A stretch of DNA of 41,090 bases from the UHGV virus genome UHGV-0314758. The stretch is one strand, 5' to 3'. The notes under the pieces are model-generated. The model was not told the DNA's origin and did no database searches. It was given only the letters and a program-made list of their open reading frames with translations. The translations under genes were made by a program, and so were the position numbers. Below are positions 3,555-33,710 of this stretch, piece after piece. This DNA is from a virus. Position 1 is the first letter of the stretch. Every line of letters begins with the position of its first letter.

Positions 3555-3568
3555 TTACCATTTGGTAA
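3555..3568. promoter_or_regulatory. operator-like palindrome TTACC-ATTT-GGTAA (OL cluster, 4-bp spacer variant)
   Basis: Direct read of the sequence. One of three sites between the repressor gene end and the leftward operon. Confidence 0.55.
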
Positions 3569-3628: not shown

Positions 3629-3643
3629 TTACCGTTAAGGTAA
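3629..3643. promoter_or_regulatory. operator-like palindrome TTACCGTTAAGGTAA (OL cluster)
   Basis: Perfect TTACC-N5-GGTAA followed by TAATAAT. An extra GGTAA half-site lies at 3609-3613. Confidence 0.6.
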
Positions 3644-3691
3644 TAATCTGATCAATTTATGGTTGTGTCAATAGATTTGATGAGGAAAAGT

Positions 3692-3706
3692 TTACCATTT
3701 TGGTAA
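3692..3706. promoter_or_regulatory. operator-like palindrome TTACCATTTTGGTAA (OL cluster)
   Basis: Perfect TTACC-N5-GGTAA. Confidence 0.6.
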
Positions 3707-3761: not shown

Positions 3762-4343
3762 TTACTGGTTCTGGCTGACGATGAACTTGATGAAGGCGGC
3801 GATCTTGTTTTTCTCTTCCTGCGGCAGCCCGGCGTATTCATGGTGGTCATAGTCAATCAGACCAGCATTACCAGGCGGAAGGATCAGCTCATATGCATCG
3901 CGGCCGAACGCCCTGGCGATAGCCGACAGTACGCCAATGCTGGTGGAGCCTTCGCAGTTCAGGATGCGATTTACGGTCGCCTGGCCGATACCGGCCGCTT
4001 CCGAAACCTTTTTCTCTGAGTTCAGATCCGGATGCTGTCCCATCCATACACCCAGGGTAAACGCTGCCTGCTTTTCCACACTCCATTCCTGCGGGTCGAT
4101 AATCTCCGGCAGCGTCGGGGTATCTGACAGATGGTCGATATCCAGCCAGAACCGACCTTTCCCGGCGAACGACTCGATCTCGCGTGCCGCGTTGGCGCCG
4201 ATATTTTTTGTCCCTTTGCTCCACCTGTTAACGAGGTTAGCTGATTTTTTGATTCTCTCGGCAAACCGGAGTTGCGTGTTATCGAAATCCTTCCGGATTA
4301 TCTCATTGAGGTTGTCGCGTCTTATGTCGTAGATGCTTTTCAT
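3762..4343 (-). CDS. CI-like prophage repressor with two XRE-type HTH domains and no S24 peptidase domain
   Basis: 193 aa. HTH 1 is ...LRFAERIKKSANLVNRWSKG... and HTH 2 is ...VSEAAGIGQATVNRILNCEGSTSIGVLSAIARAFG.... There is no Ala-Gly/Ser-Lys autocleavage module. It is divergent from a cro-like gene and flanked by operator clusters. The start has no SD, as for a PRM-type leaderless transcript. Confidence 0.7.
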   Translation of the reverse strand: MKSIYDIRRDNLNEIIRKDFDNTQLRFAERIKKSANLVNRWSKGTKNIGANAAREIESFAGKGRFWLDIDHLSDTPTLPEIIDPQEWSVEKQAAFTLGVWMGQHPDLNSEKKVSEAAGIGQATVNRILNCEGSTSIGVLSAIARAFGRDAYELILPPGNAGLIDYDHHEYAGLPQEEKNKIAAFIKFIVSQNQ

Positions 4344-4396: not shown

Positions 4397-4411
4397 TTAC
4401 CATAAAGGTAA
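4397..4411. promoter_or_regulatory. operator-like palindrome TTACCATAAAGGTAA (OR cluster)
   Basis: Perfect palindrome within the repressor/cro divergent region. Confidence 0.6.
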
Positions 4412-4413
4412 AC

Positions 4414-4428
4414 TTACCAAAAAGGTAA
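4414..4428. promoter_or_regulatory. operator-like palindrome TTACCAAAAAGGTAA (OR cluster)
   Basis: Perfect palindrome, 17 bp centre-to-centre from the previous site. Confidence 0.6.
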
Positions 4429-4497: not shown

Positions 4498-4731
4498 ATG
4501 AGCGATGTGCAAAAATTTGACTTCAAACGCTGCTGGCTCGACCTCTCGCCGGCTGAGCGAGAAGAGTTCGCAAGTGACGCCGGCACGACCAGCCACTACA
4601 TTCAGGTTCACCTGACTGGCCGTAGAAGAATTCCACGTAAGCCTCTGTTAGAAAGACTGTTTAAAGCCTGCAAATCCCGTAATTGGATCTCCGCAAAATC
4701 CGACCTGGTCCTCTGGTTCCACGAACGTTAA
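4498..4731 (+). CDS. Cro-like HTH protein (YdaS/Cro family)
   Basis: 77 aa, divergent from the repressor. The motif LSPAEREEFASDAGTTSHYIQVHLTGRRRIPRKP resembles the YdaS/Cro-type HTH. Confidence 0.55.
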   Translation: MSDVQKFDFKRCWLDLSPAEREEFASDAGTTSHYIQVHLTGRRRIPRKPLLERLFKACKSRNWISAKSDLVLWFHER

Positions 4732-6673: not shown

Positions 6674-6688
6674 TTACCAAAAGGGTAA
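6674..6688. promoter_or_regulatory. operator-like palindrome TTACCAAAAGGGTAA
   Basis: Perfect palindrome, 6 nt upstream of a 16-codon mini-ORF (6695-6745, MRKTIDIDPFMVINYQ). Confidence 0.5.
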
Positions 6689-6735: not shown

Positions 6736-6750
6736 TTACCAATAAGGTAA
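6736..6750. promoter_or_regulatory. operator-like palindrome TTACCAATAAGGTAA
   Basis: Perfect palindrome, 5 nt upstream of ATG 6756. The GGTAA half probably doubles as the SD. Confidence 0.5.
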
Positions 6751-9952: not shown

Positions 9953-9972
9953 TACTGTTTAAATATACAGTA
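9953..9972 (+). promoter_or_regulatory. LexA (SOS) box TACTGTTTAAATATACAGTA
   Basis: Matches the CTGT-N8-ACAG consensus with both half-sites intact. Lies 17 nt upstream of ATG 9990 and just downstream of a TTGACT -35-like hexamer at 9930-9935. Confidence 0.7.
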
Positions 9973-9989
9973 TTTTAGGGGTGAATATC

Positions 9990-10247
9990 ATGGGTGGCAA
10001 AGACCGTAATTATACTGTCGTTTACCGCGGGGATTTTATCGACGCCGTACCTGATGGCCGATGGATGATGATCCAGCGTGGCAAGGAGTACGGCGGCGGC
10101 TACTGGTTTGGTCGAGCTTATGCCGACTGCTTCTGGCTTGAGTTTGAGCGGCCAATGCCTCTATCAAGCTGTGTTGAGTACGTCGTGCTATACGACCATG
10201 TCGCTGCCAGAGCTCATGAGTTTGAGGATGAATTTAAACTGGAATGA
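9990..10247 (+). CDS. small SOS-regulated protein (candidate antirepressor/induction factor)
   Basis: 85 aa (MGGKDRNYTVVYRGDFIDAVPDGRWMMIQRGKEYGGGYWF...), RBS AGGGGTGAA. It lies directly downstream of the LexA box and is followed by a rho-independent terminator. Confidence 0.5.
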   Translation: MGGKDRNYTVVYRGDFIDAVPDGRWMMIQRGKEYGGGYWFGRAYADCFWLEFERPMPLSSCVEYVVLYDHVAARAHEFEDEFKLE

Positions 10248-10289: not shown

Positions 10290-10304
10290 TTACCTAAAAG
10301 GTAA
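10290..10304. promoter_or_regulatory. operator-like palindrome TTACCTAAAAGGTAA upstream of the late operon
   Basis: Perfect palindrome 20 nt upstream of the terminase small subunit start, immediately after the terminator. Confidence 0.5.
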
Positions 10305-13068: not shown

Positions 13069-13145
13069 TGGTGCAGCATGCAGGATTCGAACCTGCGACC
13101 AACCGCTTAGAAGGCGGTTGCTCTATCCTACTGAGCTAATGCCAC
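13069..13145 (-). tRNA. tRNA-Arg (anticodon UCU)
   Basis: Minus-strand sequence GTGGCAT-TA-GCTCAGTAGGATAGAGC-A-ACCGC-CTTCTAA-GCGGT-TGGTC-GCAGGTTCGAATCCTGC-ATGCTGC-A-CCA. It has a standard cloverleaf, a TCT anticodon and an encoded CCA. The acceptor stem carries two G-U pairs. Confidence 0.8.
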
Positions 13146-13460: not shown

Positions 13461-13475
13461 TTACCAAAAAGGTAA
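13461..13475. promoter_or_regulatory. operator-like palindrome TTACCAAAAAGGTAA (divergent late/moron promoter region)
   Basis: Perfect palindrome followed by TAATTT. It is preceded by TTGTGT, which could serve as a -35. Confidence 0.5.
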
Positions 13476-29966: not shown

Positions 29967-31162
<1,196 letters not shown>

Positions 31163-31176: not shown

Positions 31177-31737
31177 ATGAAGAAAATTATATTTTTTGTT
31201 TCAATAATGATGTCTGCATTTTCTTTTGCAGGGCAAAATGTCAAATGCGAACTTAAATACTTTGGGGATAGCGATAAATTCAAGGTAACTGAGTTTTCTT
31301 TTATGGGGATTCCATCTGATTCATACCTTTATACCTGTGCAGACTGTGGAGATATCCAGATAAACGTGTTCCCATCTATTCAGTCTGTCGCTTCCTACTC
31401 ATTTGAAAACAACATTGATTTTGAAAGGAAAATCAATGCTGAATACAACAGGAAAGACATAGCTAAACTTGAAATGGAAAATGTTACTCAAGGTGGGAGA
31501 ATAAATTACTCAATCACCGATACTGGTTTGGCAGAGTTCTACCCAGAAGGCAAAAAAACAAGTTACCTATACTTTTTAGCAAAGCAAAAAAAAGGTAAAG
31601 AACAAGTAGGTTATTCAGGATTTGTTACTTCTAACGGTGATAAGTCATGCTCAATTATTGCGACATATCCAGGAAAAGAAATATCTTCTCAGGGAAGTAA
31701 ATCGCTAAGCTACTTTATGAACCATATCTCAATGTAG
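31177..31737 (+). CDS. AT-rich moron: secreted protein with signal peptide
   Basis: 186 aa. MKKIIFFVSIMMSAFSFAGQ is a Sec signal. The GC content is far below the phage average. It originally abutted the stop of the upstream virion gene as TAATAATG and is now separated from it by IS5. Confidence 0.55.
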   Translation: MKKIIFFVSIMMSAFSFAGQNVKCELKYFGDSDKFKVTEFSFMGIPSDSYLYTCADCGDIQINVFPSIQSVASYSFENNIDFERKINAEYNRKDIAKLEMENVTQGGRINYSITDTGLAEFYPEGKKTSYLYFLAKQKKGKEQVGYSGFVTSNGDKSCSIIATYPGKEISSQGSKSLSYFMNHISM

Positions 31738-31762: not shown

Positions 31763-31786
31763 TAAAAAGCCCGCTATGCGGGCTAT
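31763..31786 (-). terminator. rho-independent terminator for hicBA
   Basis: On the minus strand: AGCCCGC-ATA-GCGGGCT followed by TTTTTAAT, directly after the hicA stop. Confidence 0.55.
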
Positions 31787-31983
31787 TAAAAATACTTATC
31801 TAAACCAGCGTCTTTCAATATGTTATTTGCTGTGTGTTTCGATTTCACAGTAAACGGAACAGAAAAATTCCTTGATGACAATGGACTATACCATATCTCA
31901 TGACTGCCTTTTCCTTGCCTTACAAAATAACAATTTGCAGACTTAAGGATATCAACGAGCCTGGGGTATAGTCCTGTACCCAT
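31786..31983 (-). CDS. hicA: HicA-family mRNA interferase toxin
   Basis: 65 aa (...FVRQGKGSHEIWYSP...NILKDAGL...) with the conserved G-S-H motif of HicA/YcfA. Confidence 0.7.
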   Translation of the reverse strand: MGTGLYPRLVDILKSANCYFVRQGKGSHEIWYSPLSSRNFSVPFTVKSKHTANNILKDAGLDKYF

Positions 31984-31986
31984 ACA

Positions 31987-32244
31987 CTACAGTGCCATTC
32001 TGTCAGTGAAGTTCTGTTCCTGAATGAAGGATAAATGCAGCCGTTTGAGGTTGCCTTTGTATCCGTTCATTTCATATAGCTCAGGAGCTATCTCCCACAC
32101 TCTTTCGGTAAGATCTTCGTAAGAGTCAGCTTCAGTGGAGAGCCCAAGATCTTCACAGTATGCCACCCATACATTCTCTTCTGTATCGTGACACACGTTT
32201 ACTTTGAAAAGGCTCGAGAATTTCAACACATCATCAGTTCTCAT
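31987..32244 (-). CDS. hicB: HicB-family antitoxin (short form, N-terminal domain only)
   Basis: ATG 32244 with a perfect AGGAGG RBS. ...NVWVAYCEDLGLSTEADSYEDLTERVWEIAPELYEM... matches the HicB/UPF0150 N-terminal fold. The ORF track's 32292 start is an unsupported extension. Confidence 0.55.
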   Translation of the reverse strand: MRTDDVLKFSSLFKVNVCHDTEENVWVAYCEDLGLSTEADSYEDLTERVWEIAPELYEMNGYKGNLKRLHLSFIQEQNFTDRMAL

Positions 32245-32258
32245 AGTCGCCTCCTGTT

Positions 32259-32273
32259 TTACCTTATTGGTAA
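32259..32273. promoter_or_regulatory. operator-like palindrome TTACCTTATTGGTAA at +1 of the hicBA promoter
   Basis: Minus-strand promoter: -35 TTGACG (32300..32295), 16-bp spacer, -10 TAGTAT (32278..32273). The palindrome lies immediately downstream of the -10, and the AGGAGG RBS follows it. Confidence 0.55.
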
Positions 32274-32336
32274 TACTAAGCCACCCATGCAATCCGTCAA
32301 GAATTATTTTAAAAGCGCTTCCCTGCGCCAGCAGCC

Positions 32337-33041
32337 TCAGTAACCCTTGGCCTTAGCCACCACGTACTGTGCGTGCGTCTCTATGTCGCGCAGTACGGCG
32401 CCGATACCAACAATGTAGCTGAGCATGGCCGTGACCTCTGCGGCGGCGCCGGATACATCATGCCCGTCAGCATCGAGTTCCCGGAGCAGCTTCATTACCA
32501 TTGAGCTTTTGGCCAGTTCACGCAGGCCATCAGGTGAATGGATATGATCCTGATAGCGTCGGTTAAGAGGGAAGGTGTAATGCTTCTGCTCGACCTGCAA
32601 TGCATCCATGATCGCCGGCAACATGCTGCTGGTCATCTCCTGCGCCAGCATGCGGGCTTTATCAGTCTGGGAGAGTTCTTCCCGAACGTAGCGGCCAGTC
32701 TTGCGGATCTGCGGCAGCACCTCGCTGGTTACCCATTTGCGGAAGCGGTAGGGTATAGACCCTTTTTTGGTAGCATCACGGCAGCGTAATATCATAGTGT
32801 AAAGGCCTGGTTCAGATATCACACTCAGGCTTTGAGGCCCAATTCCAGGCTGACTGTCGGTTAAACCGACGGTATCTTTTTCATCATCATCAAGCTTGAG
32901 AAGAGCATCGCGGTTGTTAGAAATTCCCAATGCATTACACACATCAATAGCAACAAACCATGGCTCACCGTTAATGGTAAATGTGCGAATTTTAACCGTA
33001 GAGTCGAAAGAGAAAATAGACAGTGCATTTTGTGCAGTCAT
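32337..33041 (-). CDS. Bro-N domain antirepressor
   Basis: ATG 33041 with an AAAGGTG RBS. MTAQNALSIFSFDSTVKIRTFTINGEPWFVAIDVCNALGISNNRDA... matches a Bro-N domain. The C-terminal roughly 75 aa are paralogous to the 33361..33621 product. Confidence 0.7.
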   Translation of the reverse strand: MTAQNALSIFSFDSTVKIRTFTINGEPWFVAIDVCNALGISNNRDALLKLDDDEKDTVGLTDSQPGIGPQSLSVISEPGLYTMILRCRDATKKGSIPYRFRKWVTSEVLPQIRKTGRYVREELSQTDKARMLAQEMTSSMLPAIMDALQVEQKHYTFPLNRRYQDHIHSPDGLRELAKSSMVMKLLRELDADGHDVSGAAAEVTAMLSYIVGIGAVLRDIETHAQYVVAKAKGY

Positions 33042-33200
33042 AGTGATCACCTTTGTAGTTAGGTTAATCACCACCGGAGGTTCCAATCTCTGAGGTGGTG
33101 AGACGTACAGGGTTGGAACTACCGGCTACAAAGGACCCGGCGCACCTTTCGGTGCCCCTGCACGCCCCACCATAATTCGAATGTGGCCGTGCTGAACGCA

Positions 33201-33221
33201 TAAAAAAACCGCTTACGCGGT
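33201..33221 (-). terminator. rho-independent terminator (minus strand)
   Basis: Minus strand ACCGC-GTAA-GCGGT followed by TTTTTTT. It lies between the small SOS gene and the Bro-N gene. Confidence 0.5.
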
Positions 33222-33313
33222 AAAGCGCCTCTGTAGTCATCCGGGGTTCCAATCCCGGCACCGGATTTTGCCGATGCCCGATCACTATGGCACAATGGGA
33301 ATGGGTTGTAAAT

Positions 33314-33328
33314 TTACCATTTTGGTAA
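33314..33328. promoter_or_regulatory. operator-like palindrome TTACCATTTTGGTAA
   Basis: Perfect palindrome flanked by TTGTAA (-35-like, 33306-33311) and TAATAA (33329-33334). Confidence 0.5.
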
Positions 33329-33360
33329 TAATAAACCCATCGTTATTTTGATTTCAATCA

Positions 33361-33621
33361 CTATCTGAGTTGCTGCCGCAACTGCATCGCGCAGAAATCC
33401 AGATGCGTTTGCAGCTCCCGCATCGACAACTGCGAGCTTGTCACATAGTTAACCAGTGCCACCAGTTCCGCCGCCGCACCGCTGACATCGTGGCCGTCTC
33501 GCTCCATCTCCCTGAGCAACTCCATCAGCTGTGATTTTACAACCAGGGATCTGACCCCTTCCGGGGTGTGAATACGATCCGCAAAACCTTCGTCGACAGG
33601 ATACTGGTACCGCTCTGGCAT
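33361..33621 (-). CDS. small protein paralogous to the antirepressor C-terminal domain; SOS-regulated candidate antirepressor
   Basis: ATG 33621 with a GGAG RBS. MPERYQYPVDEGFADRIHTPEGVRSLVVKSQLMELLREMERDGHDVSGAAAELVALVNYV aligns with the Bro-N protein C-terminus (RRYQDHIHSPDGLRELAKSSMVMKLLRELDADGHDVSGAAAEVTAMLSYIV). A LexA box lies 19 nt upstream. Confidence 0.55.
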   Translation of the reverse strand: MPERYQYPVDEGFADRIHTPEGVRSLVVKSQLMELLREMERDGHDVSGAAAELVALVNYVTSSQLSMRELQTHLDFCAMQLRQQLR

Positions 33622-33639: not shown

Positions 33640-33659
33640 TACTGTATATATATACATAT
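33640..33659 (-). promoter_or_regulatory. LexA (SOS) box TACTGTATATATATACATAT
   Basis: CTGT-N8 (ATATATAT)-ACAT, a 17/20 match to TACTGTATATATATACAGTA. Lies immediately upstream of the 33621 start. Confidence 0.6.
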
Positions 33660-33695: not shown

Positions 33696-33710
33696 TTACC
33701 TTAATGGTAA
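33696..33710. promoter_or_regulatory. operator-like palindrome TTACCTTAATGGTAA
   Basis: Perfect palindrome in the divergent region between the SOS-regulated small gene and the tailspike. Confidence 0.5.

Follow-up and report, generated by a model that had tools for sequence, protein, structure and literature searches.

The 41,090-nt viral genome UHGV-0314758 (the window, i.e., the whole stretch of DNA that was analyzed) represents a prophage of Klebsiella (genus Uetakevirus, ε15/phiV10/SPC32H type) and carries a hicBA toxin-antitoxin (TA) cassette that is probably controlled by the repressor of the phage itself. According to our analysis, hicBA is most plausibly a Class 2 moron at the 3′ end of the immI operon, which belongs to the regulon of the phage repressor Rep and is repressed or throttled by it. 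Evidence for this proposal includes the following: the hicBA promoter contains a copy of a palindrome, TTACC-N5-GGTAA, that is dispersed over the phage genome; this palindrome is very probably the Rep operator; and its half-sites are retained at the promoters of strongly diverged cassettes.

The hicBA promoter overlaps a phage palindrome

The hicBA promoter is of the sigma-70 type, with a −35 hexamer TTGACG (32300 to 32295), a spacer of 16 nt and a −10 hexamer TAGTAT (32278 to 32273). The last base of the −10 box is at the same time the first T of the palindrome TTACCAATAAGGTAA, which is followed by AAC, the Shine-Dalgarno (SD) sequence AGGAGG, CGACT, and the hicB start codon at 32244. The initial annotation of this region, made from the sequence alone, had described a promoter with a palindrome behind the −10 box and a perfect AGGAGG ribosome binding site, and was accurate in every detail. 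Its proposal that the site matches the phage operator was likewise supported: in this phage family, the palindrome is also present in the immunity region and at about ten further promoters, and a second 15-mer identical to TTACCAATAAGGTAA is found at 6736.

Three promoters, namely the PL-like, immI and hicBA promoters, share the geometry in which the −10 box ends on the first T of the palindrome. Hexamers resembling a −10 box next to the palindrome are probably a by-product of the sequence A-TTACC...GGTAA-T at some sites, e.g., in antisense orientation at 10304. The PL-like, immI and hicBA promoters also have good −35 hexamers at the correct spacing.

The palindrome is a dispersed and conserved element of the phage genome

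TTACC-N5-GGTAA occurs in 11 perfect copies in the window; when up to one mismatch is allowed, 13 sites are found compared to 0.56 expected and to a maximum of 3 in shuffled sequences. When every 5+5 inverted repeat with a spacer of 2–9 nt was counted de novo, it ranked first with its 11 copies, followed by a runner-up with 4. The abundance of the palindrome is not due to chance. Its copies are promoter-proximal (Table 1), and the region left of rep holds a third site (3555–3568) with a spacer one base short (N4).

The same palindrome is the top inverted repeat in the window and in the phages ST512-KPC3phi13.3, ZX5, PAT1 and SPC32H, with 10–11 syntenic copies in each of them. Paired copies have centre-to-centre spacings of 17, 62–63 and 74–76 bp, which are conserved in every genome examined, and the 62/76-bp spacing of the OL type is also found in SPC32H and PAT1. 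Such conserved spacings fit a tetrameric, loop-forming Rep with two separated DNA-binding pairs. The consensus pooled over 41 sites reads A-TTACC-(A/T-rich N5)-GGTAA-T; its half-sites are invariant while the centres vary freely, which is the signature of a protein-DNA site rather than of an RNA stem. A literature search for the palindrome as a string, with the primary SPC32H papers lying outside the search, returned no match.

Rep is the candidate binder of the palindrome

The rep gene of the window encodes a 193-aa repressor that aligns over its full length (residues 1–192, E = 4.4e-76) with chain A of 5D50, the crystallised SPC32H Rep. It is 63.5% identical to the SPC32H rep product and 45% identical to ORF21 of ZX5. 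The SPC32H Rep-Ant immunity switch was reportedly worked out by Kim & Ryu in 2013 and Kim et al. in 2016, with PDB entries 5D50 and 5D4Z. The Rep tetramer binds palindromic DNA through DNA-binding pairs that come from different dimers, and tetrameric Ant splits Rep into dimers (PMC9638917). Three domains make up Rep: DNA binding resides at the N-terminus, dimerisation in the middle, and a p53-like tetramerisation domain at the C-terminus serves looping (PMC9986798). When the Rep homolog of ZX5, a relative from E. coli, was overexpressed, free phage was abolished and holin and endolysin mRNA dropped by 99.97–99.99%; the Bro-N protein of this phage promoted lysis (PMC9782041).

Several observations connect Rep to the palindrome. 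Scanning of viral contigs in IMG/VR for the tandem OR pattern gave 107 stretches, 80 of which were examined, and in all 80 loci a Rep homolog (60–100% identity) is encoded 53–62 bp from the pattern. A Samsonia prophage whose Rep is just 38% identical still uses TTACC-N5-GGTAA. In a Proteus Rep homolog (33% identity), the N-terminal recognition helix reads PSMISRY versus ANLVNRW, and the sites flanking this homolog read TAACC-N5-GGT(T/G)A (9 compared to 1.03 expected). Based on co-occurrence and sequence covariation of this kind, TTACC-N5-GGTAA is with high probability the operator of Rep.

HicA and HicB form a Class 2-like pair

Both products of the cassette exceed the Pfam thresholds of their families. 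HicA matches HicA_toxin (PF07927) with 33.9 bits at a cut-off of 27 (residues 8–61, model positions 3–58 of 58), and HicB matches DUF1902 (PF08972) with 40.2 bits at a cut-off of 22. HicA contains the motif G26-S27-H28, whose His is aligned with the His of the HicA-family structure 1WHZ in a weak match; a catalytic role of this residue is what we assume from established HicA work. The initial call of a genuine hicBA pair with a G-S-H HicA thus stands, and HicA is assigned as a predicted toxin by family membership. The hicB gene lies upstream of hicA with its stop at 31987 and the hicA ATG at 31983, leaving a gap of 3 nt, and we propose that the two are translationally linked genes of one unit. 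A hairpin equivalent to the terminator that closes hicBA is also present 3′ of hicA in ST512-KPC3phi13.3. Searches against PADLOC-DB v2 gave no family at E ≤ 0.01 for HicA or HicB and no defence-system match for the Bro-N Ant, the small Ant or a neighbouring 186-aa open reading frame (ORF).

The nearest solved relative of HicB by sequence is TTHA1013 (1WV8, 73 aa, E = 2e-5). An AlphaFold (AF2) model of HicB, built on a 12-sequence alignment from which SEN22 was excluded, has a pLDDT (predicted local distance difference test) of 79.9 with a core above 90, and consists of a β-β-β-α-β arrangement plus a five-residue helix. The 70-residue β-β-β-α-β core represents the partial RNase H-like (HicB) fold. 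In Foldseek searches with this model, 1WV8/TTHA1013 was the best match, end to end (TMt 0.80, E = 1.3e-4), and besides it there was no match below E = 0.001. Pfam detected no DNA-binding domain in HicB, and the AF2 model contains no helix-turn-helix (HTH), ribbon-helix-helix (RHH) or Phd-type element. As judged from sequence and model, HicB is predicted to be devoid of any known module for DNA binding, and Pfam, the AF2 model and Foldseek agree on this point with the initial annotation. What did not hold is the premise that such a HicB is odd, as it is the norm for Class 2, the commonest hicBA class (PMC10865869). The earlier interpretation is partly supported: its anatomy and regulatory reasoning are good, its premise about HicB does not stand, and the defence, addiction or abortive-infection role that it suggested is a putative one. 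The unusual part of this locus is that a candidate regulator can be named.

Conservation and mobility of the cassette

Judged by comparison with its relatives, hicBA is a mobile moron that seems to carry its operator along. In the window it has its own promoter and terminator, and both the slot and the cargo vary among close relatives. In ST512-KPC3phi13.3, a cassette with a HicB of 66% identity (about 74% at the DNA level) resides one slot upstream, between small ant and the immI promoter, with a hicBA promoter TTGACG-16-TAAGAT followed by TTACCACAAAGGTAA, an SD sequence and a terminator. Prophages of Superficieibacter (HicB 66% identical) and Samsonia (55%) show the arrangement of the window, with a perfect palindrome at −28/−29.

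We aligned the promoters of seven cassettes with HicB identities of 55–100%, which have a mean column identity of 58%. The invariant columns are essentially ATTA-C, GGTAA and AGGAGG, and the central five bases of the palindrome differ in every lineage. The −35 box is kept in five of the seven diverged cassettes, and the distance from operator to start codon was kept while the surroundings diverged. In an IMG/VR variant with a HicB of 99% identity, an unrelated promoter, TTGCAA-17-TATATT, again ends on a palindrome with one mismatch.

The palindrome seems to have been put in front of accessory genes besides hicBA as well. The slot after ant in ZX5 (locus L013, 155–1000) encodes a 108-aa ORF product without Pfam match and a 167-aa DUF2335 membrane protein, and in front of this unrelated cargo lie a promoter-like element and, at 978, a copy of the palindrome. 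SPC32H, PAT1 and ZX5 have no hicBA, yet carry 10 copies of the palindrome.

HicB-family cassettes of other phage families, i.e., those of Photorhabdus (myovirus-like and siphovirus-like), Xenorhabdus and SEN22, lack the palindrome. Its presence at the cassettes of the family described here and its absence elsewhere indicate that the palindrome tracks residence in the phage family that uses it. The Photorhabdus and Xenorhabdus cassettes (L014, 9101–10454; L015, 9342–10454; L142, 9483–10210) are located directly downstream of ORF6N or Bro-N antirepressor-type genes, and a different leader of about 85 nt at the Photorhabdus hicBA is conserved between two unrelated Photorhabdus prophages. In the P22-like Salmonella phage SEN22 (L011, 4578–5432), hicBA adjoins the mnt/arc/ant immI region, and its HicB of 217 aa with DUF1902 at 147–205 resembles Class 7 of Gerdes.

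On the far side of the cassette, an IS5-family transposase gene (30114–31094, 326 aa) is found between ejection-protein genes and hicA, as is a 186-aa ORF (31177–31737) with an N-terminal signal-peptide-like sequence and no match in Pfam or PADLOC. Relatives carry a different small ORF at this place (L001), which indicates a variable accessory slot.

Position of hicBA in an immI-type operon

An isrK-C4-ant immunity operon of the immI type occupies the minus strand and ends with hicBA. The order is LexA-box-like site, small ant, immI promoter/operator, isrK-like RNA, C4 RNA, Bro-N gene, hicB, hicA and terminator. The LexA-box-like site TACTGTATATATATACATAT at the small-ant promoter has the core CTGT-N8-ACAT, and SPC32H has cactgtataaacatacagta at the equivalent position. 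Small Ant matches chain E of 5D50 with E = 4.8e-33 over 83 residues. The C4 RNA shares its strand with the Bro-N gene, which it immediately precedes, and the C-terminal 80 aa of the Bro-N protein (large Ant) are paralogous to small Ant (39% identity to orf98, E = 1e-23). The phage thus has two predicted antirepressor genes, and the paralogy suggests that in one of them a Bro-N domain is fused to a Rep-binding module, under separate control by the C4 RNA.

The terminator scan predicted no terminator between the stop of large ant (32337) and hicB, so that read-through is a possible second expression route for hicBA. The block of isrK, C4 and Bro-N is kept in ZX5, ST512-KPC3phi13.3 and the prophages of Superficieibacter and Samsonia (L130, L135), and is absent from SPC32H. 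The tandem of isrK and C4 between the operator-bearing promoter (33328–33357) and Bro-N resembles a layer of the P1/P7-immI and Gifsy-1-isrK kind that was added to a Rep/Ant switch of the SPC32H type. The placement of hicBA directly behind Bro-N or ORF6N antirepressor genes recurs in six loci that belong to at least three phage types; it is suggestive, but could simply reflect a permissive moron slot.

Table 1. Coordinates in the window of the hicBA cassette, its operon, rep and the palindrome copies; operators are predicted Rep operators.
Feature	Position	Strand	Description
hicA	31786..31983	minus	65 aa; predicted HicA toxin, dsRBD-type mRNA interferase family; PF07927
hicB	31987..32244	minus	85 aa; stand-alone HicB-fold antitoxin; DUF1902, PF08972
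Intrinsic terminator closing hicBA	31768..31784	minus	7-bp stem with 6 GC pairs, T-run
hicBA promoter	32273..32300	minus	sigma-70 type, TTGACG-16-TAGTAT; 9/12 consensus match
Rep-type operator copy (predicted)	32259..32273	minus	TTACCAATAAGGTAA; about −7 to +8 of the hicBA promoter
hicB Shine-Dalgarno	32250..32255	minus	AGGAGG; same in 7 diverged promoters
Bro-N antirepressor-like gene (large Ant)	32337..33041	minus	PF02498, 72.5 bits; directly upstream of hicBA
C4 antisense RNA	33091..33177	minus	P1/P7 immI type; RF01695, 79.4 bits (gathering threshold 45)
isrK-like Hfq-binding RNA	33202..33277	minus	own terminator; RF01394, 79.3 bits (gathering threshold 50)
immI promoter	33314..33357	minus	TTGAAA-18-TATTAT; ends on first T of copy 33328..33314; 10/12 match
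Operator copy	33314..33328		immI promoter, before large antirepressor gene
Small antirepressor Ant	33361..33621	minus	86 aa (listed ORF to 33657); homolog of crystallised SPC32H Ant
LexA-box-like site	33640..33659	plus	TACTGTATATATATACATAT; small-ant promoter; 3 mismatches to 20-mer consensus, 0 expected by chance
Operator copy	33696..33710		between divergent small-ant and tail-fibre promoters; syntenic with SPC32H site 20013
OL	3555..3706		copies 3629..3643 and 3692..3706, 63 bp apart; N4 variant 3555..3568; left of rep
PL-like promoter, leftward	3671..3643		TTGACA-17-GATTAT; ends on first T of copy at 3643; 10/12 match
rep	3762..4343	minus	193-aa SPC32H-type repressor; N-terminal HTH, middle dimerisation and C-terminal tetramerisation domains
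OR	4397..4428		tandem copies 4397..4411 and 4414..4428; between rep and cro-like gene at 4498
Operator pair	6674..6750		copies at 6674 and 6736, 62 bp apart; upstream of DUF1064/nin-like block
Operator copy	10290..10304		just upstream of small terminase gene
Operator copy	13461..13475		upstream of head/portal genes; syntenic in ZX5, PAT1, SPC32H

Two further features were noted. Within 9953–10247, a second and better LexA box, TACTGTTTAAATATACAGTA, with 2 mismatches, overlaps the −10 box of TTGACT-17-TATACT and precedes an 85-aa ORF (ATG at 9991) without Pfam match, which is located just upstream of a terminator and of the operator before the small terminase gene; from this arrangement, the ORF looks like an SOS-controlled gene. 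A tRNA-Arg gene (anticodon TCT; 13069–13145, minus strand) is conserved in ZX5, SPC32H and ST512-KPC3phi13.3.

Copies of the cassette outside the phage

Cassettes of the ST512 type are also found on plasmids and chromosomes. A perfect palindrome is present at hicBA on plasmids of Enterobacter hormaechei and K. variicola, in a defence-island-like setting with AbiEii, SNIPE and Zeta toxin. The strains concerned have the accessions GCA_030732205.1 for E. hormaechei and CP063918 for K. variicola. On a Pseudescherichia chromosome (L131), hicBA adjoins a glycosyltransferase gene and has two tandem palindromes, with no rep gene nearby; on a Klebsiella sp. chromosome it adjoins an MFS transporter gene and has a palindrome with one mismatch; and in an Erwinia cassette the palindrome is lost. 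The one-mismatch and lost palindromes look like decay.

No Rep homolog was found on the Enterobacter or K. variicola plasmids, and the 10 kb around the Enterobacter plasmid copy hold no homologs of ant, tail-fibre genes or Rep. This absence argues against the Enterobacter plasmid hicBA being part of a phage remnant. The non-phage copies are 85–94% identical at the DNA level to the phage-borne ST512 type, and because of this close relationship, recent escape is the simplest reading. Their palindromes are either a recent relic, or are bound by Rep provided in trans from another prophage or by some other protein. The Enterobacter hormaechei plasmid holds a second perfect palindrome 1.1 kb from hicBA (L016, 11061–11075), in the spacer of TTGACG-17-TAATAT, and next to it a 50-aa hydrophobic ORF on the other strand.

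A model for control of hicBA by Rep and its alternatives

In our model, Rep bound at −7 to +8 would block RNA polymerase at the hicBA promoter in the lysogen, as at the PL-like and immI promoters, so that hicBA would be repressed or, more likely, throttled. Upon DNA damage, LexA cleavage would lead to release of small Ant, which would dismantle the Rep tetramer and allow the operator-bearing promoters (PL, PR, nin-like, terminase, head, tail-fibre, immI and hicBA) to fire together. Read-through of the immI/ant transcript would provide a second input to hicBA. We infer, with good support from the arrangement described above, that hicBA is under Rep control; we also infer the binding of Rep to the hicBA copy, a lowering of hicBA transcription, the strength of this effect and its biological pay-off.

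Several observations weigh against this model or limit it. At 13461, 6674 and 33696, the palindrome is not superimposed on a −10 box or start site in the manner of hicBA, and the effect of the palindrome may therefore differ among promoters. Moreover, hicBA has just one palindrome where the immunity promoters have pairs, and a tetramer that uses pairs elsewhere may occupy a single isolated palindrome only weakly. In type II TA systems, the antitoxin is labile and the toxin stable, and a tight shut-off after lysogenisation would thus free HicA and be harmful. For the lysogen, a throttled hicBA is at least as likely as a silent one. Finally, palindrome-bearing hicBA cassettes exist on plasmids and chromosomes without the phage, and a model in which the cassette is purely held silent by a resident repressor does not explain these palindromes.

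Part of this evidence would be accommodated if Rep acted as a surrogate for autoregulation, which we regard as possible although clearly less likely than the model above. Here, partial occupancy of the hicBA operator would maintain a low and steady level of HicB-HicA in the lysogen for defence or post-segregational arrest. The Rep-operator step is common to both models, and the surrogate version predicts hicBA expression in the lysogen. In line with this version, the hicBA site is single while the tight immunity promoters are paired at 17 or 62–63 bp, type II TA logic makes full shut-off unlikely, expression from the prophage is typical of morons, and persistence of the cassette on plasmids without Rep indicates that unrepressed expression is tolerated. 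Anti-phage roles for HicA modules have also been proposed by Gerdes (PMC10865869). On the other hand, PADLOC gave no match, and hicBA shares its −10-overlapping geometry with the PL-like and immI promoters, for which a lysogen requires tight repression.

A more speculative and rather doubtful extension would make hicBA a three-component sensor of the repressor state, with Rep as the transcriptional arm of a TA pair that lost its own. If Rep were stripped off by the resident Ant, or by the antirepressor of a superinfecting or co-resident phage, and then restored, a burst of hicBA expression would be followed by shut-off and by HicA-caused arrest, given the expected lability of HicB and stability of HicA. 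If this were true, the arrest would be a ratchet that commits induced cells or an abortive-infection trigger against Rep-attacking phages, and the recurrent location of hicBA behind antirepressor genes in unrelated phage families would be functional.

It is improbable that another phage protein is the relevant binder of the hicBA palindrome. The 77-aa Cro-like product of 4498..4731 would be such a protein, and hicBA would then be down-regulated in lytic growth rather than in the lysogen. In lambdoid switches, CI and Cro act on common operators; here, the cro-like gene adjoins OR in 77 of the 80 loci, and the location of sites before late operons would fit a lytic-phase regulator. Yet the Cro-like protein has no Pfam HTH match, and the change in the Proteus half-sites tracks the change in the recognition helix of Rep. 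Binding by a Cro-like protein would also be compatible with binding by Rep.

Even less credit is given to classical TA autoregulation, in which HicB or HicB-HicA would bind the palindrome through an unrecognised surface and the identity with the phage element would be mimicry or coincidence. The palindrome does accompany the cassette onto Rep-free plasmids and chromosomes, is duplicated in L131, and operon regulation by Class 2 HicB is an open question (PMC10865869). Nevertheless, the 10 copies in the hicBA-less phages SPC32H, PAT1 and ZX5 imply that the phage has its own binder, the HicB core matches TTHA1013 over its whole length and includes neither an HTH nor an RHH or Phd-type module, and the palindrome is missing from the Photorhabdus, Xenorhabdus and SEN22 cassettes of this family. 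HicB was rejected as the main binder of the palindrome, because phages without hicBA hold the same 10 sites.

Similarly remote is an explanation in which the hicBA promoter and operator are irrelevant, the palindrome is a relic, and the cassette is expressed just by read-through from immI/ant, gated by the C4 RNA and by Rep at 33314. It would agree with the lack of a predicted terminator before hicB and with the recurrent position of hicBA behind Bro-N/ORF6N genes in at least three phage types. What argues against it is that the −35 box, the −10 overlap, the half-sites and the SD sequence are the conserved parts of a diverged region, that the promoter relocates with the cassette to a different slot, and that the independent IMG/VR promoter variant rebuilds the layout.

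Lastly, a 5′ stem-loop of UUACC and GGUAA that stabilises transcripts, with no DNA site involved, has a negligible probability and was rejected: although the palindrome is located at the start of the transcribed region at three promoters, the −10 box ends on its first T, which places the predicted start inside the palindrome and leaves the hairpin incomplete, the stems are invariant across the 41 sites without compensatory changes while the loops vary, and many copies lie upstream of promoters, in spacers, or in tandem in the rep-cro intergenic region.

Comparison with known systems

One close counterpart is the SPC32H switch, with which the window shares a Rep of 63.5% identity, a small Ant homolog, a LexA-box-like site and syntenic palindromes (10 in SPC32H, 11 in the window). 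SPC32H lacks hicBA, the Bro-N Ant and the isrK/C4 RNAs; the phage described here adds three layers downstream of small ant, namely small RNAs, a second antirepressor and a TA cassette. Rep and Ant of this 63%-identical relative have already been purified and crystallised.

The immI region of P1/P7 consists of c4 RNA, icd and ant with the C1-controlled operator Op51, and C1 operators are dispersed over P1. Like P1/P7, the window has a C4-family RNA before an antirepressor gene, an operon promoter with an operator of the primary repressor, and many scattered operators. Both operons also include a growth-inhibiting gene, icd in P1 and, as predicted, hicA in the window. In contrast to P1/P7, the repressor family and the operator are different, and the predicted toxin of the window belongs to a bona fide type II TA pair, which has a promoter of its own and is located after ant and not before it. 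If our model is confirmed, a toxin would be tied to antirepressor operons in clinically relevant Klebsiella prophages and in the plasmids that captured them.

Growth-inhibiting prophage genes that are kept off by a resident repressor, and whose release upon loss of this repressor is harmful, are known from RacR-YdaS/YdaT of Rac, DicA-DicB of Qin and CI-kil of lambda. These toxins are ordinary early genes without a dedicated protein antitoxin, whereas the window has a full TA cassette that would additionally be under the repressor.

Lambdoid morons consist of a promoter, a gene and a terminator between backbone genes, and are classically expressed from the repressed prophage without dependence on the lytic circuitry. 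Similar to these, hicBA is an autonomous unit that occupies differing slots in relatives, with other cargo in the ZX5 slot. Unlike classical morons, its promoter carries what is predicted to be an operator of the lytic cycle. If confirmed, this would mean that a moron can also become a member of the lytic regulon, besides being expressed from a silent prophage.

Compared to canonical hicAB systems (E. coli K-12, Burkholderia pseudomallei, Streptococcus pneumoniae; Classes 3 and 4), the window has the same combination of a HicA toxin, a HicB-fold antitoxin and a palindrome overlapping the promoter. In the canonical systems the toxin gene comes first; in the window the order is reversed, the antitoxin has no DNA-binding domain, and the palindrome is that of the phage regulon.

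Class 2 hicBA modules are organized as hicB followed by hicA, with a HicB of 63–103 codons that lacks a recognisable DNA-binding domain and a HicA of 60–85 aa (PMC10865869). The window fits this class by its gene order, a HicB of 85 codons, a HicA of 65 aa and the 3-nt gap. Class 2 is the most common hicBA/HicA context, and its regulation has explicitly been named an open question (Gerdes, mBio 2024, PMC10865869). In contrast to Class 2 as described, the hicBA promoter of the window has a predicted operator of a repressor that is encoded 28 kb away, and this site is conserved across genera. On the basis of these comparisons, the locus offers a concrete candidate answer for one lineage, in which control of a Class 2 module would be outsourced to the repressor of the phage that carries it; if confirmed, trans-control by the master repressor of a mobile element would represent a new class of TA regulation.

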